Shown in pieces: positions 2,801-30,816 of a DNA stretch of 64,000 nt. The stretch lies in IMG/VR virus record IMGVR_UViG_3300033047_000037. One strand, written 5' to 3'. The position numbers were made by a program, and so were the translations under genes. The stretch comes from an uncultured virus (IMG/VR IMGVR_UViG_3300033047_000037). Lineage: Duplodnaviria; Heunggongvirae; Uroviricota; Caudoviricetes. The notes under the pieces are model-generated. The model did not search any database and had not been told where the DNA came from. It saw only the letters and a program-made list of their open reading frames with translations. Within the stretch, counting starts at the first letter, position 1; every line of letters starts with the position of its first letter.

Positions 2801-2852
2801 TTTCGCGCACCAGAAATATCCAACCCAAAGAAACACCACCAGGACCACCAGA

Positions 2853-3065
2853 ATGACGATATCACCAGTATACCCCAGAGATGGAGAAACTCTCACAAAC
2901 ACTCACAAACATATACTATCTCTACCAGCCTATAAACAACAACACCTACAAGAGTATATACAAATGTCCTACAAACTAAGAGACCATAAAAGAAATCAAC
3001 TGCTGTCCCAAACATTAGAAAATAATCAAGAACAATGGAACGCCATACAACAGTATATTGGATAA
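2853..3065 (+). CDS. Hypothetical protein
   Basis: ORF track, co-oriented. Confidence 0.5.
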   Translation: MTISPVYPRDGETLTNTHKHILSLPAYKQQHLQEYIQMSYKLRDHKRNQLLSQTLENNQEQWNAIQQYIG

Positions 3066-3267
3066 TGATATGTTCTCGAATGACCCCATATTCCTGCTCA
3101 CCAAAGCTGTTCAAAAAGCAAACAATAGAAAACATGATGTAGAAAGAATTAAAACGTTTACCAATCTCTTTGTCACCGGAGCCCTCTCAAGTCATGAAGT
3201 CTACAAACTAATCTGTAAACAAGGACTCGAAAATCTACACCAAGAAATTATACGAGAAAATAAATGA
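3058..3267 (+). CDS. Hypothetical protein
   Basis: ORF track, overlaps neighbours. Confidence 0.55.
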   Translation: MDNDMFSNDPIFLLTKAVQKANNRKHDVERIKTFTNLFVTGALSSHEVYKLICKQGLENLHQEIIRENK

Positions 3268-3536
3268 TATCCCTCGACTCTCTCTTTCAGGTAGCAAAAC
3301 TTACAAAACAATCCATCGTTGAACAACAAGTAGTTGATGATATATCCAAAAGTATAGAAGAGGCTATCACCAATCTGGATGGAACCACTAAACCCTTTGA
3401 AGAAATCAAAGACCTAGACTTCAGAGAGATAACAGGACTAAGAAGCCCAACCCCAGATGAAATGGATGAACATATCCAAAACTATGAAAAATATGTAAAA
3501 AGAACAAGCCGATTCACTCAAGAGAATATCAAATGA
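3264..3536 (+). CDS. Hypothetical protein
   Basis: ATGA overlaps at both ends. Confidence 0.65.
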   Translation: MISLDSLFQVAKLTKQSIVEQQVVDDISKSIEEAITNLDGTTKPFEEIKDLDFREITGLRSPTPDEMDEHIQNYEKYVKRTSRFTQENIK

Positions 3537-3561
3537 TACCACTCGATGCTCTGTTCCAGAT

Positions 3562-3646
3562 AGCTCACACTCTTCGAGCGGAGAGAGAAGCTCACACTCT
3601 TCGAGCGGAGAGAGAAGCTCACACTCTTCGAGCGGAGAGAAGCTCA
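3562..3646 (+). repeat. 27-bp tandem repeat x3 (AGCTCACACTCTTCGAGCGGAGAGAGA; third copy lacks 2 nt)
   Basis: Units start at 3562, 3589, 3616. Confidence 0.95.
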
Positions 3647-3900
3647 AATCACCAAAGCTACTAAGCCCAAATCCATTGCTGATAGGTTTACCGAACCTTT
3701 GTCTACTGATTAACTAAAACGATTCACAGAGACCATCAAGAGGTCATCCTACTCTGTTGGAAAATTCAATACAGCAGTACAAAAGAATATACCTATCCCT
3801 AACACTGGATGGGACTGGGACTGATTAGAATATGTTCCCAAAGTATACTCATAGACGACTTTCAATGCAGGATCTAATCAACCCTTGCACTGATTATCCC

Positions 3901-4007
3901 TTACACTGTTCCACTACTTCATAGTAGAAAACGTTACACTGTTCCACTACTTCATAGTAGAAAACGTTACACTGTTCCACTACTTCATAGTAGAAAACGT
4001 TACACTG
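3901..4007 (+). repeat. 33-bp tandem repeat x3 plus partial (TTACACTGTTCCACTACTTCATAGTAGAAAACG)
   Basis: Units at 3901, 3934, 3967; internal inverted repeat CTACT-N4-AGTAG. Confidence 0.95.
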
Positions 4008-5263
4008 AATGACTATCAAATAACCCTTACACTGCTCACTCTACGAGAGAGACACGAACGAGTAGCGAATGGCTCTTACACTGAATGAGGAATAAGCTGG
4101 TATTATTCATTTGTTAGAAACCCTTACACTGAATGGGAATAAAAGGGTTACACTGAATGGAAAACCTACTTTACGGGTTGTCATGGTCGATTGTCCCACT
4201 ATGTCCCACTCTCTCCCACAGGAAACTTTAGATGTGCGTTTAGACTCAACAATAGGATGTCTTTATATTACAACTGCAATATTTTCTAATAAGTTTTATT
4301 AGTTTTCCTGTTATTAAGTTATTCACATGCCAGAAACCCGTATTACCTAATAGTTAACATACCGATATATAACTAGTACGTTACTTGTTTAGAATAGGAA
4401 ACTTTATAATGAAATTGCGTGGCATTCATATCAGGGGCAAATCCTCATTGAGAGACATTTCTTTGGACTTCATGACCGAAGACGGGGAAATGTTACCACA
4501 ATCAATCCTGAGGGGTAATTTGGGTACGGGAAAGACATTGATTCTACAGCTAGTAGCTGCTGCGTGGTCACGTTCGGTCTTGAGCCATCCAAACTTGGAG
4601 ATGGCATTGGATGCAGACATGGTACGAGTGGACTTCCAGGTTGGCGCTGAGATAGCTTCGGTACATATACGGAATGGCAGGATAGAGCCATCAGACGTAT
4701 TAGCAAGGGCTGCTGACGTTGAGGTTGGCGAGGGAGGACAGCGGGTACATCATGGTATTGTTTATTACTCGGTCGCCAGGGGCGGGTACGTCGAGTTCAC
4801 CAATCTAGAAAGATCGGTGCCTGATGGTATTCAGCGATGTTTACCAGTCATCTATGATTTACAGATGCGTGACATCAGGGATTCGGTTGTTCTTATCGAT
4901 GATTGGGACATGGGTTTAGATGATTCTGCGCGAAAATCTTTTTACAACCATATATCACGTCATGCTCATAATAGTGGGAATCAGTTGATTTTATCATCAG
5001 CGGCGAAAGCACCAGGGTTTTTTCCATCTCGCGGCATTCACGAACTTGAGGGTGGCTTAGATATTATAAGCGAATGTTTGAAACTTTTAGCAGAGGTAGG
5101 TGGGGGTACTTAATTAAACACGAAGTGTTTAATAAGTAACAAGTCCAGGAAACCTTACACTGAATGGGAAGTTCCTAGCATGTGAGTAGTTATTAAGTTT
5201 ACCGGCATAAAGATCTCTGACACTGAATGGGTTGCACTGAATGGGAAGGCTTGCACTGAATGG
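4000..5263 (+). repeat. Two clusters of CACTGAATG motifs (4000-4160 and 5155-5263) flanking the ATPase gene
   Basis: About four copies per cluster, read directly. Confidence 0.85.
4409..5113 (+). CDS. ABC/AAA-type P-loop ATPase
   Basis: Walker A GNLGTGKT; Walker B/D-loop-like VLIDDWDMGLD. Confidence 0.75.
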   Translation: MKLRGIHIRGKSSLRDISLDFMTEDGEMLPQSILRGNLGTGKTLILQLVAAAWSRSVLSHPNLEMALDADMVRVDFQVGAEIASVHIRNGRIEPSDVLARAADVEVGEGGQRVHHGIVYYSVARGGYVEFTNLERSVPDGIQRCLPVIYDLQMRDIRDSVVLIDDWDMGLDDSARKSFYNHISRHAHNSGNQLILSSAAKAPGFFPSRGIHELEGGLDIISECLKLLAEVGGGT

Positions 5264-7158: not shown

Positions 7159-8556
7159 ATGGCAAAGAAAACCCCCAAATCAGGCACCCGTCGAGGGCGC
7201 AAAGCCGATGCGATTCAATTCATCGCACCGACGATTCCGAACGACCACATCATTCGTGATGCGATTGCTATGGGTTTGTCCACTTCTGAGGATAGCGCAG
7301 CAATTCGTACCATTCTCCAGCGTCACCCCCAGAATGTCGATACCATTCTCGATTCCGATGAGCGTGCGGGTCGTCAAGCAACTCTCATTGCTGAGGGTCG
7401 GATGAACAATGTTCTTACTGACAAGGATAGAGTTGAGCGGGTCTTAGACTTCGTTCGCCAGTCATCGTCCGAAAAGGGCGAGCGCGAATGGCTTTCGCTT
7501 CTCTCTCCTGACCGCCAAACTCTGGTAGATATTGAGAGCTATCGTAAGCTCTTATTGAAGCGCCTGAATGAGCAGATTCGTGCGGTACGGCGCAAGGTTC
7601 GTGACCAGAGCAAGCGCGAGAAAAGTCGTATGGCTGAACATATGGCTGACAGCGATGGAGTTGCTCTTTCGATATCGTGGGTAGAAGCTGCTGAGGATAT
7701 CGAGGAAATTGAGCGCATCCCTACTGGCAATCAATTGATGGATATATTCTTTGGCTATGATGAAATTGAACAAGCCGATGGTTCTTTCATCAAGATTGGT
7801 GGCATAACTTCGGGTCATACTTACATTGTTGGCGCAGAGCGTGGCATGGGTAAGACTCGTTGGCTTGTTGACTTGTTTGGTCGCTTATGCGGCGCACCTA
7901 CAACTGATATGCACGGTCGTATGGTTGGCGGTATGACAGGTCTTTACATTCAAGGCGAGGAAACACCTGCTAGATTCGCTTCCATGTTTGCCGATGGAGT
8001 ATGGGATGAGAAGGTCCACGATGTTCACTTGTCAAGTAACGCCGTATTTATGACTCAGCATGAGTCCCTGATTCGTCAACTTCGACCTGATATCGTAGTC
8101 ATTGATTCCAAGGATATCATGGAGGATTGGCGTCATCCGGCGCAGGCAAAGCGCAATGCCAAGATTTACAATCGTTGGGCCGTTGAATACGGATTCGTTC
8201 TCTTTGTTATCTCTCATGTCAATGCTGAGGGCAAGATCAAGGGCGGTACAGACTTGCCCCATATGTTCCGAGCAGAGATTACTGGAGCTAAGAACGAGCA
8301 TGATCCTTCAATGTTCCACTTCCTTATGAACAAGAATCGTGGTTCGGCAAGCGGTGGAGTCCTCCACTACAAGCATGGACCTGATACTGTCCACATTGTT
8401 GACCCTTCATCGGGCGGCAATATCATCAAGACTGAAATGTCTCCAGATGCGAAGCTTCTCTCGGGCATGGTTCAAGCGGTTACAGATTCAGTTGGAACTT
8501 CAAGCGGCATGCTGTCGAGTATTCGTGAGGCTACGACTCGGGCAACTGGAGGATAA
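7159..8556 (+). CDS. RadA/Sms-like RecA-superfamily ATPase
   Basis: GAERGMGKT, LYIQGEE, VVIDS, SHVNAEGKIKGGTDLPHM (compare RadA GHVTKEG..GP..LEHM), NKNRG. Confidence 0.75.
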   Translation: MAKKTPKSGTRRGRKADAIQFIAPTIPNDHIIRDAIAMGLSTSEDSAAIRTILQRHPQNVDTILDSDERAGRQATLIAEGRMNNVLTDKDRVERVLDFVRQSSSEKGEREWLSLLSPDRQTLVDIESYRKLLLKRLNEQIRAVRRKVRDQSKREKSRMAEHMADSDGVALSISWVEAAEDIEEIERIPTGNQLMDIFFGYDEIEQADGSFIKIGGITSGHTYIVGAERGMGKTRWLVDLFGRLCGAPTTDMHGRMVGGMTGLYIQGEETPARFASMFADGVWDEKVHDVHLSSNAVFMTQHESLIRQLRPDIVVIDSKDIMEDWRHPAQAKRNAKIYNRWAVEYGFVLFVISHVNAEGKIKGGTDLPHMFRAEITGAKNEHDPSMFHFLMNKNRGSASGGVLHYKHGPDTVHIVDPSSGGNIIKTEMSPDAKLLSGMVQAVTDSVGTSSGMLSSIREATTRATGG

Positions 8557-15880: not shown

Positions 15881-16021
15881 ATGGTTATGGACACTCAGAT
15901 CCAACTCGACTTGTTACTGCTTGCGTGAGAGGTAAGACCTCACTAACGCTTGCGCTGTAATTTGAGTCAGCCAAGACCTCACCTGAAATTGAATGACGAT
16001 GCTCTGTAAAATGAGCGATAT

Positions 16022-16103
16022 GGCTCTATGGCGGAATTGGCAGACGCGGTAGATTCAAAATCTATTGGGGAAACCCATCCCGGTTCGAGTCCGGGTAGAG
16101 CTA
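16022..16103 (+). tRNA. tRNA-Leu(CAA)
   Basis: Cloverleaf; anticodon arm GTAGA-TTCAAAA-TCTAT; long variable arm. Confidence 0.93.
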
Positions 16104-16121
16104 TTGACGTAGGAGACTTGT

Positions 16122-16337
16122 ATGAATACTAAACAGTTTATTAATACTGTGCGAGAGTTTCTTGAAACAAGCATGGAAACCGATACCCGTATAGTAGATG
16201 CGAGCATTGAAGATGATAAGATCATCGTTGAAACGAATGATGGTATGATGACTCAAGTATGGGAGATTTCTTGCTCAAAAACATCGAACACTGATAATGA
16301 AGTCCATATGGCGAAATTGGCAGACGCGCAACCTTGA
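16122..16337 (+). CDS. Hypothetical protein (3' end overlaps tRNA)
   Basis: AGGAG RBS. Confidence 0.6.
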   Translation: MNTKQFINTVREFLETSMETDTRIVDASIEDDKIIVETNDGMMTQVWEISCSKTSNTDNEVHMAKLADAQP

Positions 16338-16385
16338 GGTGGTTGTTCCAGAAATGGAGTGCAGGTTCGACTCCTGCTATGGACA
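16302..16385 (+). tRNA. tRNA-Leu(GAG)
   Basis: Anticodon arm CAACC-TTGAGGT-GGTTG. Confidence 0.93.
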
Positions 16386-16394
16386 TTTAGTTTT

Positions 16395-16476
16395 GGCCCC
16401 GTGGCGGAATTGGCAGACGCGCTAGACTTAGGATCTAGTTCTTAACGGAGTGCAGGTTCGAGACCTGTCGGGGCTA
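16395..16476 (+). tRNA. tRNA-Leu(TAG)
   Basis: Anticodon arm CTAGA-CTTAGGA-TCTAG. Confidence 0.93.
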
Positions 16477-16478
16477 TT

Positions 16479-16742
16479 ATGCGAGAATGGAAAATCATCG
16501 AAATCTTTGACGAATGCATCGAACAGTATGTATGGGCACTTGAAGAACGAGAAGATCGTTCCTGTAATACCACTCGTCTTTGTCCTGTCAAGTATGAAGA
16601 TTCATGGTATCAGGCTGTAGAGATGGCTTGCATCTATATGGAACTCTGCGTTGAGTGGAGAAAAAACCGAGACCTATACTTCAGTCCCTTTGAAATTCGA
16701 GACAAAGCTTATGCCTTAGCGGGCTTACCTCTTGCCGCATAA
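16479..16742 (+). CDS. Hypothetical protein between tRNAs
   Basis: ORF fills the inter-tRNA gap. Confidence 0.6.
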   Translation: MREWKIIEIFDECIEQYVWALEEREDRSCNTTRLCPVKYEDSWYQAVEMACIYMELCVEWRKNRDLYFSPFEIRDKAYALAGLPLAA

Positions 16743-16753
16743 AGATAGTATCA

Positions 16754-16835
16754 GGGCTTGTGGCGGAACTGGCATACGCGACGGATTTAAAATCCGTTCT
16801 CGAAAGGGATGAGGGTTCGAGCCCCTCCAAGCTCA
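16754..16835 (+). tRNA. tRNA-Leu(TAA)
   Basis: Anticodon arm ACGGA-TTTAAAA-TCCGT. Confidence 0.93.
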
Positions 16836-16940: not shown

Positions 16941-17591
16941 ATGCAGATTGAAGCGAAAGCAACCGAAAACACCGTCACCGACGCACAGGCTTCCGAGCTT
17001 GATTACGTCGTTGCTATTGATACATCCGGCTCTATGGGTGGTACAGACCAAAGCGATGCCCAAAAGCGAACTCTCTTCGCTGTAGCTGAAGAATTCACCA
17101 CCGGCCTCGCACGCTGGGCTGAGACCGTTGATGATGACGGCATTACTGTTATGACCTTCGGCGGCGCTGCTGTTGTTGTGGAAGACAACGTTACAGCATC
17201 GAGTGTTGAGACAATCTTCGCCAAGAACAAGCCATTCTCTTCGACTCCTACGCACCTCGCTGTTCAACGCATCATCGACATGAAGCGAAGCGGTCAGCTT
17301 ACCAAGAATGTCGTGGCCTTCATCATCACCGATGGTCGCCCGAATGATCCTGAAGCAGTTGCCAAAGCGATTGCTGGCTGGACCAAGGACGCTTCGGCGA
17401 CCGAGAAAAGCATCAGTTTCTCATTCATTCAGATCGGCAGCGATGCCGGCGCAAGCAGCTTCCTCAAGATGCTCGATGACGACCTCGAATCCAAGTACGG
17501 CGCGAAGTTCGATTGCGTTGATACCCGCAGCCTACATGAAACAGACAGCATGACTCCTGGTCAGCTTGTTTGGGGCGCTCAGAACGACTAA
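16941..17591 (+). CDS. von Willebrand factor A domain protein
   Basis: MIDAS DTSGSM, STPT, ITDGRP; FIQIG. Confidence 0.9.
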   Translation: MQIEAKATENTVTDAQASELDYVVAIDTSGSMGGTDQSDAQKRTLFAVAEEFTTGLARWAETVDDDGITVMTFGGAAVVVEDNVTASSVETIFAKNKPFSSTPTHLAVQRIIDMKRSGQLTKNVVAFIITDGRPNDPEAVAKAIAGWTKDASATEKSISFSFIQIGSDAGASSFLKMLDDDLESKYGAKFDCVDTRSLHETDSMTPGQLVWGAQND

Positions 17592-17723
17592 CCACGAGCA
17601 GGCAGGCACACCGCCTGTCTGTTTTTTCGCATCTTTTAGCTGCCGACGTAGGTAGTTGAGACCGAAACCGTAAGCTCTGTGGAAGAGTTTATAAACTGTC
17701 CATTGGACAAAAGGAACTGAAAA

Positions 17724-18317
17724 ATGTTGACTATTACCCCCAAGGGTGGGACCGTTGGTCTTACCATCGCTGCAAAGGCAACTCCTGAAGCATCGACTGC
17801 ACCTGGCCATTTCAACTTCGGCGCAGGTTGGGATACCGACCAAGGCGAAGCTGACCTCGACCTTTGCCTCTTGGTACACCGTGGCCGTGGTACTCCCGTC
17901 GTTGATGGCGACCTCATCTACTACGCCAATCTCACCGCTCCTGGTATTGTCCACACCGGCGACAACCAGACGGGCGAAGGCGAAGGCGACGACGAGAACG
18001 TTCGTATGACTCTCGCTGACCTGTCTTCTGATATCACTGCTGTTTCTGTTGGTATCGTGGCATACTCGGCGACTGACTTCTCCAGCGTCTCCAACATCCA
18101 TCTCGAAGGTCGCGCTGGCGATGACGAGTCTGGTACCAGCCTCTTCGGAGCCGACTTCGGCGAGACAGGTAGTAACACCTGCCTCGTGGCTGCTCGCCTT
18201 GAGCGCCAGCCTGACGGCGAATGGAACGTGACCAACATCGCTGAATTCTCGAACCCCGGCAACGGCGCTGCTGCTATCCAGGGCTTCGCTGATTCTGCTT
18301 CTGCTCAGTACAAGTAA
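17724..18317 (+). CDS. terD: TerD-family stress protein
   Basis: GWD...DLDL, HTGDNQTGEGEGDDE. Confidence 0.9.
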   Translation: MLTITPKGGTVGLTIAAKATPEASTAPGHFNFGAGWDTDQGEADLDLCLLVHRGRGTPVVDGDLIYYANLTAPGIVHTGDNQTGEGEGDDENVRMTLADLSSDITAVSVGIVAYSATDFSSVSNIHLEGRAGDDESGTSLFGADFGETGSNTCLVAARLERQPDGEWNVTNIAEFSNPGNGAAAIQGFADSASAQYK

Positions 18318-18421
18318 ACCTTGCAAGGGCGGCAAGGGTTCAAGCTCTTGTCGTCTTTTTTCATTCACACTTGCCTGCGTTGAGATCGAGTCGCGCTGGC
18401 TAAAACCTTAAGGAGCCAGCT

Positions 18422-18880
18422 ATGCTGAGCAAATTTATGAGCGTTCTCCAAAATATCGGAGATGACATCGCAGGCGGAGCAAAGAAATTTGCCAACAAGG
18501 GCACTCGTGACCGTGCCGCTGCTATTGCAGCAATGGTCGCTTACATCCCAGACAAGGATGCGGACAAGGACGAAATCAACAAGGGCGTGAAGGTTATTCA
18601 CCGCATGACGAATGGCGCGTTCGAGATCGACGACATGATCCAAGCCGTCAATGATGCTGTCTCAACTCTTGAATTCGACATCGACATGGGTCGTGCGGAA
18701 CTCATGAATAAGGTACTCAAGGCCAACGACGACGAAAAGCGTCTGTTGGTCAACGTTGGCATTGCTGTCGGCAAGTCTTCTGGCGAAGAAGGCGAAGATC
18801 CATTCTCGCCGGAAGAGAAAGAGTGCGTCAGGCGCATTATCACCGATCTCGGTCTCAGCGCTGGCGATTTCGGCCTCTAA
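18422..18880 (+). CDS. terB: TerB-family protein
   Basis: Helical TerB-like pattern (AMVA..D..D.DE; F SPEEK...RRI...LGL); next to TerD. Confidence 0.75.
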   Translation: MLSKFMSVLQNIGDDIAGGAKKFANKGTRDRAAAIAAMVAYIPDKDADKDEINKGVKVIHRMTNGAFEIDDMIQAVNDAVSTLEFDIDMGRAELMNKVLKANDDEKRLLVNVGIAVGKSSGEEGEDPFSPEEKECVRRIITDLGLSAGDFGL

Positions 18881-18979
18881 GCCATTTCGCTTGTTGGCTG
18901 ACTTCCACTTTGGGAGCCGGGGACAAACCTCGTCCTCGGCTCTTTTTCTGCCTAGAGATTACTAAACAGAGGCACTCGC

Positions 18980-20098
18980 ATGCAATTCACCCATGATCTA
19001 GCTAACACGATGGCTACATGGCATTGGGCCATCAACCTTTCCCTTGTCATCCTTGTCACGTTGATTTTGTCGAAGATCATTGCTTGGGCGTGTGACCACT
19101 TCGAGCCTGCTGCTGGACATCTTGGTCGCAACTGGCCTCAAGGCATCAAGGGTCGCACCATCAATGCAGCCGGCTCGTCGATGCCAGAACTTTGTACGAC
19201 GATTGCTCTTTTGTTCTTTGTGGGTGGAGGCGTTGCGGGCGCTGCCTACATAGGAGCGGGGATCTCAGTTACAGCAGGGTCCGCTGTGTTCAATGGGGTC
19301 ATTATTCCTGCTGCTGTTATTTTCGCAGTTCTTGCTCCTTTCTGGATCCGGCTGATGACTTTTGGCATTGCCAAGGCCATGAACAAGCAAGCGGAGAGCT
19401 TCACGATCGACAAGAAGACGGTGGCAACGGACATGTTGTTCGTCTTCATCGCTGAACTTGCTCTCATCTTCTTCTTGCATAAGGGCGTATTTGAACTGTG
19501 GATGTGCTTGTCTCTCTTCAGTATTTACCTCTTCTACACGGCTGTTTCTTTCTTCGCGGTAAGAAATCACGAGGGAGAGGAAGTGGAGGCTGAAGAAGGG
19601 TGGACGAATAGACGGGCACTCTTGACTCTCTTCTGGTCAACGCTTGCCCTCATCCTAACCTGCTACGTCCTTGGCGAGGTAATCATCATCTCTGCTACGG
19701 CTCTCGGGGTACACCCAATCATCACGGCTGTCTTCTTTGGCGCTGCTGCAAGCTCGGTCCCTGATACCATACTCTCTGTACGGGATGCTCGTAACGGCGA
19801 CTACGAAGACGCCCTTGCCAACGCCTTTGGTTCCAACACGTTCGATATCTGTGTGGCGCTAGCTGGACCAATGGGCGTATACATTGCCTTGAATGGTCCA
19901 ATCACGGTCCCTGACCACCAAGCCATTGAAATACTACGAGTGGGCCTACTCGTGACAACCGTTATGGTTGGAGCGATGTTGCTGTGGGCAAAGAACGTCA
20001 AGAAGTGGATGGGGATCACGCTCTTGGCAACGTACCTCGTTTGGACGTTCTTCGTCCTTGATACGGAATTTGGGTTACTGTTCTTTGAAGCTCACTGA
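18980..20098 (+). CDS. Sodium/calcium exchanger (CaCA family)
   Basis: Alpha repeats GSSMPE...GSAVFN and ASSVPD...GSNTFD; many TM segments. Confidence 0.88.
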   Translation: MQFTHDLANTMATWHWAINLSLVILVTLILSKIIAWACDHFEPAAGHLGRNWPQGIKGRTINAAGSSMPELCTTIALLFFVGGGVAGAAYIGAGISVTAGSAVFNGVIIPAAVIFAVLAPFWIRLMTFGIAKAMNKQAESFTIDKKTVATDMLFVFIAELALIFFLHKGVFELWMCLSLFSIYLFYTAVSFFAVRNHEGEEVEAEEGWTNRRALLTLFWSTLALILTCYVLGEVIIISATALGVHPIITAVFFGAAASSVPDTILSVRDARNGDYEDALANAFGSNTFDICVALAGPMGVYIALNGPITVPDHQAIEILRVGLLVTTVMVGAMLLWAKNVKKWMGITLLATYLVWTFFVLDTEFGLLFFEAH

Positions 20099-21269: not shown

Positions 21270-21343
21270 GGGCGATTAGCTCAGTTGGCTAGAGCGTCTG
21301 GTTTACATCCAGGATGTCGGGGGTTCGAGTCCCTCATCGCTCA
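21270..21343 (+). tRNA. tRNA-Val(TAC)
   Basis: Anticodon arm TCTGG-TTTACAT-CCAGG. Confidence 0.92.
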
Positions 21344-21385
21344 TTCCATTCACCGAACGGGAAAGTCCTTACACTGAATGGAGTT

Positions 21386-21459
21386 GGACCCTTAGCGCAG
21401 TTGGCTAGCGCGTCTCGTTGACATCGAGGAGGTCACTGGTTCGAGCCCAGTAGGGTCTA
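21386..21459 (+). tRNA. tRNA-Val(GAC)
   Basis: Anticodon arm TCTCG-TTGACAT-CGAGG. Confidence 0.92.
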
Positions 21460-21489
21460 CTTTTGGCAAGTGAATATCGAAACACCTTT

Positions 21490-21562
21490 GGGGCCGTAGC
21501 TCAGCGGTAAGAGCAGGGAACTCATAATTCCTTGGTCGTCAGTTCGAATCTGACCGGCCCTA
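21490..21562 (+). tRNA. tRNA with CAT anticodon, Ile2-like
   Basis: GGGAA-CTCATAA-TTCCT; body resembles bacterial tRNA-Ile2. Confidence 0.85.
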
Positions 21563-21591
21563 TTTCGTCTGCATAGGCAGGCACTTTAGTT

Positions 21592-21666
21592 GGTGATTGT
21601 AGCTCAGTTGGTTAGAGCATCGGGTTGTGATCCCGAAGGCCGCGGGTTCGAATCCCGTCATTCACC
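21592..21666 (+). tRNA. tRNA-His(GTG) with encoded G-1
   Basis: TCGGG-TTGTGAT-CCCGA; G-1:C73. Confidence 0.92.
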
Positions 21667-21711
21667 CTTCAGGTAAAACTGCAAAAAGAGTAAGTTTTTT
21701 CGTTCAAGCAG

Positions 21712-21740
21712 TTGCCTTTTGACTTGGTGGGGTCTATACT
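21712..21740 (+). promoter_or_regulatory. Sigma70-type promoter
   Basis: TTGCCT-N17-TATACT. Confidence 0.55.
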
Positions 21741-21925
21741 CCTCTCACAAGCCACGGGGCATTGAAAAGTAAAGAAGTAAGAAACACTCATGAGGGCAAC
21801 CTCATGTTTGGGGTCGAAAACCGAATGGTAAAAAACTTCGATTTAGTTTAGGAACAACCGTGAAAGCTAAAAGTTCCGAAGACGGATATGTCGAAGTTTG
21901 AAGAAGCAAAGCAAGTAAGCCCATC

Positions 21926-22062
21926 GGGACGGTAGCTCAGAGAAAGAGCGTCGTCCAACTTGGATTCGTCTTAGATGAACGCAAGTACCTGCAAGGGTAA
22001 CTACGGACACTTGAGCAATCCAAGTTGGATGAAGGTCGGAGGTTTAATTCCTCCCCGTCCCA
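21926..22062 (+). ncRNA. tRNA-like RNA with greatly enlarged anticodon arm
   Basis: Acceptor GGGACGG/CCGTCCC-A, D arm GCTC/GAGC, T arm GGAGG/CCTCC; 16-bp stem 21951-21966/22017-22032 encloses 50 nt. Confidence 0.8.
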
Positions 22063-22065
22063 TTT

Positions 22066-22140
22066 TGCGGGGTAGAGCAGTCTGGTCAGCTCATCTGGCT
22101 CATAACCAGAAAGTCGGCGGTTCAAATCCGCCCCCCGCTA
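22066..22140 (+). tRNA. tRNA-Met(CAT), initiator-like
   Basis: 1:72 mismatch, GCGGGG/CCCCGC acceptor, TCTGG-CTCATAA-CCAGA, T loop TTCAAAT. Confidence 0.88.
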
Positions 22141-22197
22141 TTGTAAAAGGTTTGAAATCATAGAAGGATTTTGAACCGAAAGATTGAAGTATGGTGT

Positions 22198-22557
22198 ATG
22201 CCATACACAGATCCAGATAAAAAGAAAGCGTATGCTAAACAGCACTACGAGAAAAATAAAGCCGAGTATAAAGCCCGAGCAAGGGAATTTACTAACAAGA
22301 ATCGTGAAGTCCTAAGAGATTGGCTTTGGGATTACTGGAAGAAAAATCCTTGCGTGGACTGCGGAGAAACTGATCCGATCGTACTTGAATTCGATCATCA
22401 GAGAGACAAAGAGTTCAATATCGCAACAATGACCAGTAAGAGTGTGTCGTTAACGAGATTGAAGAAAGAAGTGGCAAAATGCGATGTAAGATGCGCTAAC
22501 TGTCACTTGAGAAAAACCGCTGATCAATTCGGTTGGTGGACAAAACAAAGAGCGTAG
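22198..22557 (+). CDS. HNH-type endonuclease
   Basis: CVDCG...LEFDH...KC.VRCANCH. Confidence 0.85.
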   Translation: MPYTDPDKKKAYAKQHYEKNKAEYKARAREFTNKNREVLRDWLWDYWKKNPCVDCGETDPIVLEFDHQRDKEFNIATMTSKSVSLTRLKKEVAKCDVRCANCHLRKTADQFGWWTKQRA

Positions 22558-22584
22558 TCACAGGTTCAAATCCTGTCCCCGCTA
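22557..22584 (+). pseudogene. Orphan 3' fragment of tRNA-Met (T arm plus acceptor 3' strand)
   Basis: GTC-ACAGG-TTCAAAT-CCTGT-CCCCGC-TA, parallel to 22113-22140. Confidence 0.85.
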
Positions 22585-22617
22585 TTCACATGCGATGATG
22601 GCATCGCAATAAGAGAC

Positions 22618-23857
22618 AGTTCGAGTTTGGTAGTTTGTCCTCGATTAGAACATCGAAAAACTGCCCTCTGACTGGTCCCGGTTATCCAAGGGGATTGGAC
22701 ATGTTGTCAAGCCACGGTTTCTGATAAGCTTGCTGTTTCGTTCTCGCTCTATAAGCAGACCTCTCACGAAGTTTGTTCACAGGGTTAAAAAGATTCAATC
22801 ATGGATGGTTGAACAGAAGCGTAATGGCGGCTCACTCATCAGACTGAAAAGGACAACAGTCTCGGATACGTTGAGAAGCGTACTGAGGCTTTAGAGAAGC
22901 CAAGCTGCGAGGCCCATACTTCTTGACATACGCAGAGACCCGACCTCACCTGGTTGAAAGGGTCAAAGCTCTAAAATTCGACCTGACTGGATGGAGACAT
23001 CCCGAAAGGAAAGAATAAGACGGAAATGTATCTCTTGAGATGCAGTTTGGTTTGACGAGGAAGCGAAAGCAAAACTCGTTTAGAGCAGAAGGACTTGAAA
23101 CAGTCCCAAGCAGATGACCAGACCCACGCCCTATACAGCGATGTATAGAGAAATGGATGGTAACTTCTCAGTCAGTTCACGCTGTCTGAGTGGTTTAGAA
23201 TGGCCCAACTGCAAAGGGGAAGCCATTCGACATAAGCAGATTCCCAGCACTGGCTTGCCAGAAAGGGAAGAAGTATTGGATTGCAAATCTGCTCGTATGG
23301 GAACATGCGACTCAGAAATGCGAAAGCAGGTATATTAGGTCTTGACCTGATATCTCGGCTTCCGAGGAACCGAAAGGGAGACTCGGCTAATGCACACTGG
23401 CTTGAAACAGTCAGAGAGCATGTAGCCGTTGTCGGGCAATGAATGGTGACATTCACTGTAACGGACGACAATCATTTGGCCTGTTCACGCAGTCCAGATG
23501 GTTTTATCAAACGTTGAGTTGACCCGATGATAAGGGTGGTTCGGCGCTCTGGCTGCTCACGGCTAAACTAAAAGTGAGAGGGAGTTCATCCCTTCATTCG
23601 TAGGATGACTACACATGAGAGTGCTTGTAACTTCTCTGATAGATAGTCCGATCATGCAACGAAAGCAAAAATGAGCTAGAGAGGCTAAGGTGCAAAACCT
23701 TGGTCTACTCTTTATGTCCAGACCCCCGCAAGGGATAGCTGACGAGCGAACATAGGGAAACCTAAGGGCTGGGCACCCTAAAATCTGCGAGGGGTGGCGA
23801 GAACGTCCTACGCAAGTTTCTTTTTATAAAGCCCTCGAATAATCGGGGGCTTTTTCT
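22618..23857 (+). ncRNA. Large structured non-coding RNA (GOLLD/ROOL-like class; family not established)
   Basis: Promoter motif at 22585, terminator at 23828-23857, no credible ORF, many hairpins with GNRA loops, adjacent to tRNA cluster. Confidence 0.72.
23828..23857 (+). terminator. Intrinsic terminator
   Basis: AAAGCCCTCGA-ATAA-TCGGGGGCTTT then T-run. Confidence 0.8.
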
Positions 23858-23998
23858 ATGCGCTTATTTATTGTCTTTGTTTCAGGGTTTTGCTGTTGAC
23901 TCCCTGCTATTCACATGCAATACTTGACCTGCAACAACTATTGTTCAGTTCGTTTTCCTCATCAAACGTCCCACAGGGACAGAAGCTTGGAGCAACAC

Positions 23999-24625
23999 AT
24001 GGCCGCAAAGACCAAATCGAAATCCCCCGCTAAGAAGCCCGCTGCGAAAGCCAAGGCCAAGACCGTTCGTCGGAAGAGAGTTGTCTCTACCACTCGGTCG
24101 GCCCTCCGCCCTGTCGATGACTCAAACCGTTCGTTGAGCAACAAGAACGCAACCAAGGCCCAGCCCGTCCCCGGCGATGCTTCGTCCATTACCGCTCACG
24201 TTGAAGAATTCTTCGGCGTCACGGCCAAGAAGTTCGCTGCCAACGCTGGATATGGTCGCCAGCACATCAATTCCAACGGCGCGGTCCATCCCGATGCCGT
24301 CTTGACCAAGAGCAATATTGCTGTTGCCAAGCTAGCAGCCCAATGCCTTGAGGTACTCGCTCAACGAGGTTCTCTCGCTGGCCAAGCTGGCGCTGTGGAA
24401 GCTCTCGGCGACGGCGGATCTCCTGCTGATGCGAAGAAGCTCATCGCCGATATCAGTAAGTTCGCTAACGGTCGTGTCAAGGCGATTCAAGCTGACACGA
24501 GCAAGGCCATTCTCGACGATGTTGCTGCTGACCTCGGCATTGATGCTACGGATCTCATTCCTGCTCAGAAGAGCAAGTCCGCCAAGCCTGCTGCCAAAGC
24601 TACCGCTACCGCCAAGGCCAGCTAA
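23999..24625 (+). CDS. Lys/Ala-rich protein with histone H1-like tails
   Basis: AAKTKSKSPAKKPAAKAKAK N-terminus, similar C-terminus; GGAG RBS. Confidence 0.75.
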   Translation: MAAKTKSKSPAKKPAAKAKAKTVRRKRVVSTTRSALRPVDDSNRSLSNKNATKAQPVPGDASSITAHVEEFFGVTAKKFAANAGYGRQHINSNGAVHPDAVLTKSNIAVAKLAAQCLEVLAQRGSLAGQAGAVEALGDGGSPADAKKLIADISKFANGRVKAIQADTSKAILDDVAADLGIDATDLIPAQKSKSAKPAAKATATAKAS

Positions 24626-29321: not shown

Positions 29322-29327
29322 CGGGGT

Positions 29328-29606
29328 ATGACCCTATCAGAAGAAATCCGCGCTCTAGGAGAAACGATCGAAGACCTCGACCTGTCAGACACTCATGACA
29401 AGGTTGACCTCTTAGAAAAGATCGGTGCATCTCCAATGGAGCTACTAATGACGTTCATAGTGGCTTTGGAAAGCTATCGAGCCCAGAAACCTACTGAATA
29501 CGACCTCTTACGCCCCCAAATAGGAGAGTTTTCCTCGCATCTTGAGGGTAGACAGCAATTCGTGTGGAAAAAGATATTCACATGCCATAAACCGTCTAAC
29601 GGCTAG
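29328..29606 (+). CDS. Hypothetical protein
   Basis: ORF track. Confidence 0.65.
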   Translation: MTLSEEIRALGETIEDLDLSDTHDKVDLLEKIGASPMELLMTFIVALESYRAQKPTEYDLLRPQIGEFSSHLEGRQQFVWKKIFTCHKPSNG

Positions 29607-29610
29607 TAGT

Positions 29611-29835
29611 ATGACTGATACCAAACCAACGGACCTTGTAGGCAGAACAATCTCTGCTGTTCGCCCAATGACTCAAAAAGAGCAAGACTTAGAAGGTTGG
29701 TTCACGCCGGCTATGGTTCTTGTCCTTGATGATGGGACTCTTCTATATCCCTCACGAGATATGGAGGGCAACGGTTCTGGCGTTCTCTTCGGTCAAGATA
29801 CTGATGGCAACTCGTTCGGCATTGGGCTTTCATAA
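29611..29835 (+). CDS. Hypothetical phage protein (SRDMEGNG)
   Basis: ATG at +34. Confidence 0.7.
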   Translation: MTDTKPTDLVGRTISAVRPMTQKEQDLEGWFTPAMVLVLDDGTLLYPSRDMEGNGSGVLFGQDTDGNSFGIGLS

Positions 29836-29888
29836 AAGAAATTGGGTGAATAAAACCCAGAGTAGAATATGGCCCAAGGAGTTCTCTT

Positions 29889-30164
29889 ATGGGTTGTCTG
29901 CCTATCGCTATCGCATTTTTCATGCCTCGGTTGATATTGTTCGTCGGTTGGATAATCGGTTTCTTCGTTGAAGCTGCGCCGTGGGAAACTAGAATGTGGC
30001 CCATCCTCGGCTTCTTCTTTATGCCTGCGACGACGCTCTGCTTTGGTGCGGCGCATGTCTATGACAAGGAAAGCTTCGAGGGTATATGGCTCATTTGTAT
30101 GATCATCGCTGTTATCTATGATATAGCTACAGGCACCTCGGTAAACAAAAAGAGCAGTACCTAA
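29889..30164 (+). CDS. Small membrane protein
   Basis: AAGGAG RBS; three hydrophobic segments. Confidence 0.75.
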   Translation: MGCLPIAIAFFMPRLILFVGWIIGFFVEAAPWETRMWPILGFFFMPATTLCFGAAHVYDKESFEGIWLICMIIAVIYDIATGTSVNKKSST

Positions 30165-30202
30165 CTTTATTCACATGCCTTACACCGAATGGGTTAGGTA
30201 GT

Positions 30203-30382
30203 ATGAGTGATATACCCAAAGGTAAGAACCATCCTTTCCATGCTCTTCCTATGTGGAGGAAAAGGCTTAACGGCTTTTATATCTACATCTTGTTTGGCAT
30301 TATGAGTCTTTTTCTTCCGGTAAAAGTGGACCGAGCAATATACAAGGCACTCAAAGACCAATACGAAGGATATGATGGCTGA
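30203..30382 (+). CDS. Small protein (59 aa, leaderless, absent from track)
   Basis: ATG at +33; manual translation MSDIPKGKNHPF... Confidence 0.6.
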   Translation: MSDIPKGKNHPFHALPMWRKRLNGFYIYILFGIMSLFLPVKVDRAIYKALKDQYEGYDG

Positions 30383-30425
30383 TGTTCCATCATTCACATG
30401 CCTTACACCGAATGGGTTAGGCAGT

Positions 30426-30659
30426 ATGAAGAGAAAGACTTGGACATACCGTGGCTGCGAGATAGCCCCTCGAACAGGACCGAGCAGATATTTCGGTCAT
30501 CGCAATTTTACGCCTAACTGTGGACTTCCTCTTCATCGGACTCAATGGTGGATAGTAGAATTCCCCGACGATTCCTGGGTTCTTTGTGGAACCAAGCAAG
30601 ATTGTCGTGAATATATCAATGAGCCCCGCAATAATCATCGAGGCTTGGAGGCGGCATAA
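30426..30659 (+). CDS. Hypothetical protein (leaderless)
   Basis: ATG at +33. Confidence 0.7.
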   Translation: MKRKTWTYRGCEIAPRTGPSRYFGHRNFTPNCGLPLHRTQWWIVEFPDDSWVLCGTKQDCREYINEPRNNHRGLEAA

Positions 30660-30816
30660 TGGACTGGGACGGCGTAAAGACGGCTTTGATGAAGGAAATT
30701 GTTTTCTTTGTCTTGTTGATTATATCAGTGATATTTGTTGTGAAGCTCTTTGCGAGCGATACTTCCTGTAAGTGTATATCTGTTGGTCAAGAACAAATTA
30801 TTGATTCGGAGACACC

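Follow-up and report, generated by a model that had tools for sequence, protein, structure and literature searches.

The window analysed here, a stretch of 64,000 nucleotides from an uncultured virus of the Caudoviricetes (IMG/VR record IMGVR_UViG_3300033047_000037), comes from a 120-kb contig, and its two complete relatives, G001 and G002, measure 488 and 498 kb. The part of interest holds the following features, all of them on the + strand:

21270-22141 (+): tRNA cluster with Val, Val, Met, His, an uncalled tRNA-like RNA and Met (ARAGORN, Rfam)
21927-22053 (+): long-armed tRNA-like RNA, from a fold of 21925-22056
22198-22557 (+): HNH endonuclease ORF, with the ATG at 22198 chosen as its start (PHROGs phrog_2255, E 6.6e-28)
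22557-22585 (+): remnant of a tRNA 3' half (T arm and acceptor strand), read from the sequence and overlapping the promoter-like motif
22582-22593 (+): promoter-like motif CTATTCACATGC, a repeated 12-mer
22594-22884 (+): module 0, the 5' module, which opens with the hairpin GCGATG-ATGG-CATCGC and is kept in G002
22885-23195 (+): unit A, from nhmmer matches to relatives, covariation and folding z score
23196-23517 (+): unit B, a diverged tandem copy abutting unit A, found by nhmmer from unit A
23518-23831 (+): module C, the 3' module, partly kept in G002 (52 nt at 92%, blastn)
23832-23858 (+): intrinsic-terminator-like hairpin, AAAGCCCTCG-AATAA-TCGGGGGCTTT into a T-run, from the sequence and the MFE fold
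23907-23918 (+): next copy of the promoter-like motif, which precedes the downstream gene and bounds the RNA gene
23999-24625 (+): P0001, a protein of 208 aa with Lys/Ala-rich ends and of no known family, used as bait for related loci

The sequence analysis shows, or very nearly shows, that the stretch from about 22594 to 23858 (+) is the gene for a modular, highly folded non-coding RNA, with a predicted transcript of about 1.25 kb. The initial annotation had remarked, at coordinates close to these, on the lack of a credible ORF, and this was borne out: all six frames of 22600-23860 contain 12-21 stops of all three kinds, the longest standard ORFs of the region reach 74 aa (+) and 99 aa (-), and a credible reading frame is absent between the stop of the HNH ORF (22557) and the next promoter motif (23907). 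A recoded protein gene was considered and is ruled out by the presence of all three stop kinds in every frame; with any single stop read as sense, the longest opening in 22600-23860 is 198 codons. The stretch 22558-23914 is among the three longest of the window without an ORF of at least 100 aa on either strand. Positions 2801-4384, which are AT-rich with a negative GC skew, and 29322-30816 are also free of ORFs of 100 aa on either strand and have no Rfam match at gathering scores.

A promoter had been reported ahead of the RNA, and a repeated motif is indeed present there at 22582-22593, as one of 21 copies of the 12-mer CTATTCACATGC that the window contains at up to one mismatch, against 0.37 expected. 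The + strand has 57 copies of its core 8-mer, TCACATGC, most of them 25-45 nt upstream of ORF starts, a placement that leads us to ascribe a promoter role to it. The motif, TCACATGC in the window and TCCACATACGA in the relatives, is probably a phage-specific promoter; that CTATTCACATGC itself acts as a promoter, and that the RNA starts at its +33 as first annotated, is what we infer. The TCACATGC copies span positions 4300-51200 (+) and precede nearly every small ORF, often followed by nGTAAA and then by CAAG about 22 nt on, and it is at the equivalent places that the relatives carry TCCACATACGA.

The terminator at the other end proved to be an 11-bp hairpin at 23832-23857 running into TTTTTCT. 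A consensus terminator scan omitted this hairpin, presumably since the T-run is taken up by the A-U extension of its stem, and the totals of that scan (8, versus 4.1 ± 2.1 in shuffles) are not above those of the shuffled sequences. A search of sequencing runs placed the stretch in a single run, which is a DNA run from a seawater metagenome and possibly the source of the sequence; there was no RNA run among the matches.

The HNH ORF sits between the tRNA-Met gene and the RNA gene. The remnant that follows it (22557-22585) repeats the end of tRNA-Met (22065-22141; the repeated part is 22115-22143), with a T stem altered on both sides. Together, the HNH ORF and this tRNA end look like a homing-endonuclease cassette that would have been inserted at a tRNA gene, bringing a foreign tRNA end with it. 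Within the cluster, the RNA at 21927-22053 is one of three tRNA-shaped RNAs, the others lying at about 987-1160 and 1167-1322 of L110, a locus of G002. They have normal acceptor, D and T arms and an anticodon arm that has become a long irregular helix of about 45 nt per strand; z scores of the folds are -4.9 and -5.3. Neither ARAGORN nor the Rfam tRNA model calls the window RNA or the first L110 copy, the latter having a weak tmRNA match (13 bits), and the second L110 copy lies directly against the RNA unit.

As to the type of virus, the helicase and a 511-aa protein gave weak matches or none against phage records. Pfam models for the NCLDV capsid and for Terminase_6N/6C had no match in G001 or G002, so the term 'phage' rests here on bacterial-type promoters and terminators, the HNH gene, a DnaB-like gene and membership of IMG/VR.

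Related loci were reached through the neighbouring protein P0001, which has no Pfam or PHROGs family and no usable Atlas match, and for which a single-sequence search of viral contigs returned no match. It has four relatives at 55-67% identity, and an alignment of P0001 relatives (A1) led to 10 loci, nine from metagenomes and one from IMG/VR. In nine of the ten, nhmmer found a match of about 320 nt to window 22891-23211, with E values of 1e-38 to 1e-42 and 73-85% identity; the tenth locus (L093) stops short of the expected position of the RNA. There the P0001 homologue lies upstream of the match, at a distance of about 1.4 kb, whereas the window RNA is upstream of P0001. The surrounding gene order is otherwise kept (w20503, w20948, P0001, w24682, w25059, w25720), and the RNA gene therefore lies three genes further along in those relatives.

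The IMG/VR locus is part of the complete genome G001, which has terminal repeats and holds the unit twice. The second complete genome, G002, was found with a degenerate pattern of one unit hairpin and carries one unit, a more distant copy, which begins directly after a tRNA-like gene. In the relatives, the ORF-free DNA of the RNA measures about 0.93-1.08 kb, starts at a promoter or a tRNA and ends with a terminator, and it contains one or two units and other accessory modules. In the G001-type loci there are two units, with a spacer between them that measures about 125-285 nt in the different variants, and the last hairpin of their second unit is the terminator; in the three that reach far enough upstream (L098, L099 and L100) the RNA stands behind a TTGACG-17-TATACT pair in which the hexamers are kept and the spacer is variable. 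The spacer between the units contains, in L100, two copies of a module made of a hairpin and GTAGGnTTTAGACCAA (8322-8358 and 8478-8515), and L091, L092 and L098 lack the intervening stretch of roughly 155 nt, which looks like a deletion by recombination between the two copies.

Model R1, trained without the sequences concerned, scores the G002 unit at 184.8 bits and the second units of the relatives at 46-50 bits, all over their full length. Model R2, made from second units only, recovers unit A (38.5 bits, E 1e-13) and unit B (24.3 bits, E 9e-9) of the window, and the G002 unit as well. By blastn, the region had no match among 50,697 phage records. The unit hairpin pattern gave 8 loci in viral contigs, the real ones being in G001 and G002 only, and 36 loci in genome contigs at which R1 found nothing beyond the hairpin; taking both collections together, R1 matched the hairpin alone or nothing at the 41 other pattern loci. 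Four further patterns (module C, module 0, a unit loop and a gapped unit signature) were found, in viral contigs, in G001 and/or G002 only, and four extra matches to the module 0 pattern were discarded since nhmmer detected no likeness. A scan of viral contigs for the promoter motif gave 90 stretches, 80 of which were listed; these matches, at least 80 stretches, were judged to be chance because, among the matches listed, each was single on its own contig. The known set is small in independent sequences, with three phage lineages plus paralogues, and as pattern scans need exact matches, divergent members can be missed and the family may be wider.

A new class had been one of the two readings first offered for this RNA of about 1.24 kb; that reading is supported, and instead of a single fold we find four parts that include a duplicated unit of about 310-330 nt. 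When unit A is compared with the window by nhmmer, unit B is matched with an E value of 1.6e-12. The helices of unit B are those of unit A, many of them altered on both sides, and unit B is nearest to the single unit of G002 (71-81% to L110 by blastn). Among the relatives found, modules 0 and C are kept in G002 only. For module 0, window 22625-22893 corresponds to 1668-1955 of L150, also from G002 (nhmmer E 2.4e-11; 82% across 61 nt by blastn), and for module C, window 23545-23714 corresponds to L150 1995-2161 (nhmmer E 2.6e-12). In G002, module 0 lies 3' of the unit. The parts are thus ordered 0-A-B-C in the window versus B'-0'-C' in G002 (nhmmer E 2.4e-11, 8.9e-23 and 2.6e-12) and leader-u1-spacer-u2 in the G001-type loci, and in sequence comparisons the unit is the sole part common to all relatives. 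We also considered modules 0 and C as degenerate units and found no support for this, R1 and R2 reaching at most 5 bits there with filters off.

A consensus structure of the unit was obtained with RNAalifold from a MAFFT alignment of 8 units (7 distinct rows) from the three phage lineages and their paralogues. It has 73 pairs in 14 helices (12 for unit A by another grouping): five to six hairpins form a junction that is closed off by a long-range helix, and after it come a long arm with a GCGA cap, a GNRA tetraloop, and then a 14-bp terminal hairpin. In unit A these elements lie as follows:

22927-22933/23110-23116 (+): long-range helix, which closes the multi-hairpin junction
23117-23161 (+): long arm capped by GCGA, from the helix map
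23162-23195 (+): terminal 14-bp hairpin, then UAGA, from the helix map

Standard pairs fill 96.2% of the 505 cells of the 8-unit alignment. In the covariation check, 40 of the 73 pairs are altered on both sides, as compared with 19.2 ± 2.6 in column shuffles (0 of 500 as high) and 4-8 with slid partners; the column shuffles ignore relatedness, and the structure was drawn from the same alignment on which it was tested and is for this reason favoured over its slid versions. Independent support for the unit structure comes from the full-length scores that R1 and R2 give to sequences outside their training sets. A model-fitted alignment that includes the second units has 52 of 80 pairs altered on both sides, in an alignment that leans to the model. 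Recurrent G-U pairs, for instance the UG that all 7 rows have at columns 160/174, are numerous and so identify the + strand as the RNA strand. The whole region folds with an MFE of -446 kcal/mol on the + strand versus -382 on the - strand, making the former more stable by 64 kcal/mol.

Against 100 dinucleotide shuffles of the + strand, the z scores for folding are -4.5 for unit A, -5.0 for unit B and -3.1 for module C (23518-23860), compared with -2.5 to +0.7 for six coding controls; module 0 reaches only -0.9 and folds no better than its shuffles. Two-sequence alifold alignments show changes on both sides in 11 of 55 pairs for module 0 and in 21 of 72 for module C, and with two sequences each they point only weakly to a structure for these modules. 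Every hairpin named in the initial annotation is real and lies inside the covarying helices of unit A or B. The two stems with a TGAAAC loop are likewise real, and turn out to be not separate elements but one helix seen in both copies of the unit. A pseudoknot in which the UUGAAACA loop would pair with the GGUUU tail was weighed by eye and dropped because the bases of the tail are already paired in the terminal helix. Homologues and covariation together support the proposal that a large, highly structured non-coding RNA is encoded next to the tRNA cluster of a phage, and we are highly confident that the region belongs to a real structured RNA family.

We compared this RNA with known families. 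Excerpts of a recent report describe GOLLD and ROOL as large RNAs of phages and prophages, of unassigned function and often near tRNA islands, which form RNA-only cages: GOLLD exceeds 800 nt and is ornate, with a conserved and a variable part, a marine example lies downstream of tRNA-Met and tRNAs sometimes lie inside GOLLD, and ROOL has about 580 nt, a complex fold and no known protein partner (10.1101/2024.12.08.627333). Much of the GOLLD setting recurs here, namely a phage, an adjoining tRNA cluster and more than 800 nt (about 1.25 kb for the window RNA, about 0.93-1.08 kb for those of the relatives). Membership of either family, raised at the outset, was not supported, as neither model matches window 22100-24100 in Rfam searches with lax filters at E ≤ 10. 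At E ≤ 1, the GOLLD model (RF02032, conserved 3' domain, gathering score 150 bits) has no match in either complete genome, out of 25 candidates scored for G001 and 6 for G002, nor does the ROOL model have one (RF03087, gathering score 99.1 bits), whose blank is weak alone, control genomes being likewise blank.

More generally, none of the 4227 families of Rfam 15 matches over the RNA in the window (E ≤ 10) or at the loci L110 and L103 of the relatives (E ≤ 1), including the models for OLE, HEARO, raiA, RNase P, tmRNA, group I/II introns and rRNA, none of which matches over the RNA. The four weak matches in 22100-24100 at E ≤ 10 fall on the terminator hairpin (three) and on the truncated tRNA-Met 3' end (one), and at gathering scores the whole window yields nine tRNAs and nothing more. 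ARAGORN found no tmRNA in the window or in those loci of the relatives that were checked. Full-text literature searches brought up, among the matches listed, no earlier account of such an RNA.

Given the failed match to the GOLLD and ROOL models, we take the RNA to form a class of its own, new among large phage RNAs, broadly akin to these two and likewise beside tRNA clusters. Like GOLLD (RF02032) as those excerpts present it, it would be a large phage RNA next to tRNAs that combines a conserved and a variable portion, here a unit and modules. Unlike in GOLLD, the conserved element is a unit of about 310-330 nt that occurs up to twice per RNA and at either end or in the middle. With ROOL (RF03087), as far as the excerpts describe it, it shares a phage origin, a complex fold and a tRNA neighbourhood, and differs in size, in architecture and in having no match to the model. 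Tandem glycine riboswitches also have two homologous folded domains per transcript; their aptamers, however, are ligand sensors of about 100 nt in 5' UTRs, and here we find a free-standing gene with units of about 310 nt and extra modules.

As for function, the RNA would be read from the phage-specific promoter-like motif through the intrinsic terminator and presumably produced in quantity during infection, with or beside the phage tRNAs. It could then serve as a stable scaffold, RNA-only or RNA-protein, as is thought for GOLLD and ROOL, in which the covalently linked units A and B would offer two equivalent surfaces, that is, a built-in dimer. This mechanism is put forward by analogy alone, because size, ornate fold, phage origin and tRNA neighbourhood match the descriptions of GOLLD and ROOL in the excerpts of that report. 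We regard the scaffold role with two linked units as a built-in dimer as possible and rather doubtful. Taken whole, an RNA gene with a modular build and a scaffold role is our best explanation of the locus, a tentative one that falls somewhat short of being probable.

A more specific and less likely version, which we advance as speculation, is that an ornate domain of about 310 nt, duplicated within one transcript, forms a covalent pseudo-dimer, and that this RNA, when tRNA-rich marine phages of about 500 kb infect their hosts, would build up a defined quaternary body, the lineages representing a one-unit (G002), a split two-unit (G001) and an adjacent two-unit (window) stage. If true, it would be the RNA counterpart of a protein turned from a homo-oligomer into a tandem-repeat fusion.

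Because module order and number vary among lineages, independent domains, or cutting into pieces, may fit the observations at least as well as one integrated scaffold. The main rival to the scaffold is a polycistronic precursor, a long transcript that would be cut into separate RNAs of about 300 nt in the manner of the neighbouring tRNA precursors, each unit or module closing with a hairpin of its own and a UUAGA-type linker, with the unit as the functional molecule; we think it improbable, and a decoy, a tail of the tRNA operon, a divergent GOLLD or ROOL and a non-RNA element rank lower. At the close of each unit stands a terminator-like hairpin of 14 bp, after which come U(U)UAGA and the next unit, the last hairpin of the second unit is a true terminator in the relatives, the G002 unit abuts the tRNA-like gene through the same UUUAGA linker, and unit number and module order differ among lineages, all of which speaks for processing. 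However, the first helix of unit B uses bases immediately past the hairpin of unit A, so that a cut between A and B would have to be precise.

We give a smaller chance to the RNA acting as a decoy or sponge that soaks up a host factor able to bind RNA, or else a nuclease or sensor of anti-phage defence, such as one that targets tRNAs, with repeats that multiply the sites. The location in or by tRNA clusters in very tRNA-rich phages (68 and 77 tRNA matches in G001 and G002) and the conserved unpaired stretches and loops, whose invariant columns could be protein sites, are in keeping with such a role; on the other hand, the neighbouring P0001 is without a recognisable RNA-binding domain (Pfam, PHROGs, Atlas), and a fold of 14 helices goes far beyond what any sponge known to us needs.

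That the RNA is a cis-acting tail of a tRNA operon, a structured 3' extension guarding or timing tRNA processing with no function of its own, appears very unlikely. The direct fusion to a tRNA-like gene in G002 and the tRNA 3'-half remnant immediately upstream of the window RNA would suit it, but the G001-type RNA stands three genes from the tRNAs behind a sigma-70-like promoter of its own, the window RNA has its own promoter motif, and the sequence-specific junctions kept across lineages and paralogues exceed what a protective tail would need. A very divergent GOLLD or ROOL, for which the Rfam models would be too narrow, has little to recommend it beyond the same genomic habitat (phage, near tRNAs, even tRNA-Met) and a similar overall size: the searches were blank over 2 kb at E ≤ 10 with lax filters and at E ≤ 1 in G001 and G002, and the excerpted parts of 10.1101/2024.12.08.627333 describe a tandem-unit design for neither RNA.

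Finally, that the region is no RNA gene at all is scarcely credible, whether as a DNA-level repeat (origins also carry tandem repeats and hairpins; packaging sites or protein-binding arrays are other candidates) or as a protein gene, decayed or antisense (in L091, L092, L098 and L099 the unit is overlapped by ORFs of 92-102 aa on the minus strand, and unit B by one of 99 aa), for the changes on both sides preserve pairs, many of them G-U pairs that would be A-C on the opposite strand, and such strand-specific compensation is not explained by a DNA-level repeat, while the minus-strand ORF is broken in unit A, where it measures 33-51 aa, and shortened to 63 aa in L100, indels between copies are not multiples of three, and in all lineages the region runs, on the + strand, from a promoter to a terminator.

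To our knowledge, only a handful of bacterial or phage RNAs are this large and elaborate, and we know of none with an established function. The RNA described here adds a class of giant RNA from a barely charted group of marine phages, and in its repeated ornate unit, whose copy number and position vary by lineage, we have a natural experiment on the construction of giant RNAs through duplication and shuffling of domains. On a practical level, the unit is compact, at about 310 nt, and so lends itself to structure determination. That tRNA clusters recur beside this RNA, as they do beside GOLLD and ROOL, adds weight to the view that such RNAs have a role in phage translation or tRNA biology. Elsewhere in the window, a second tRNA cluster (16021-16835) consists of four tRNA-Leu genes with four different anticodons, and positions 16941-20098 carry genes of the VWA-domain, TerD-domain and Na/Ca-exchanger families side by side.
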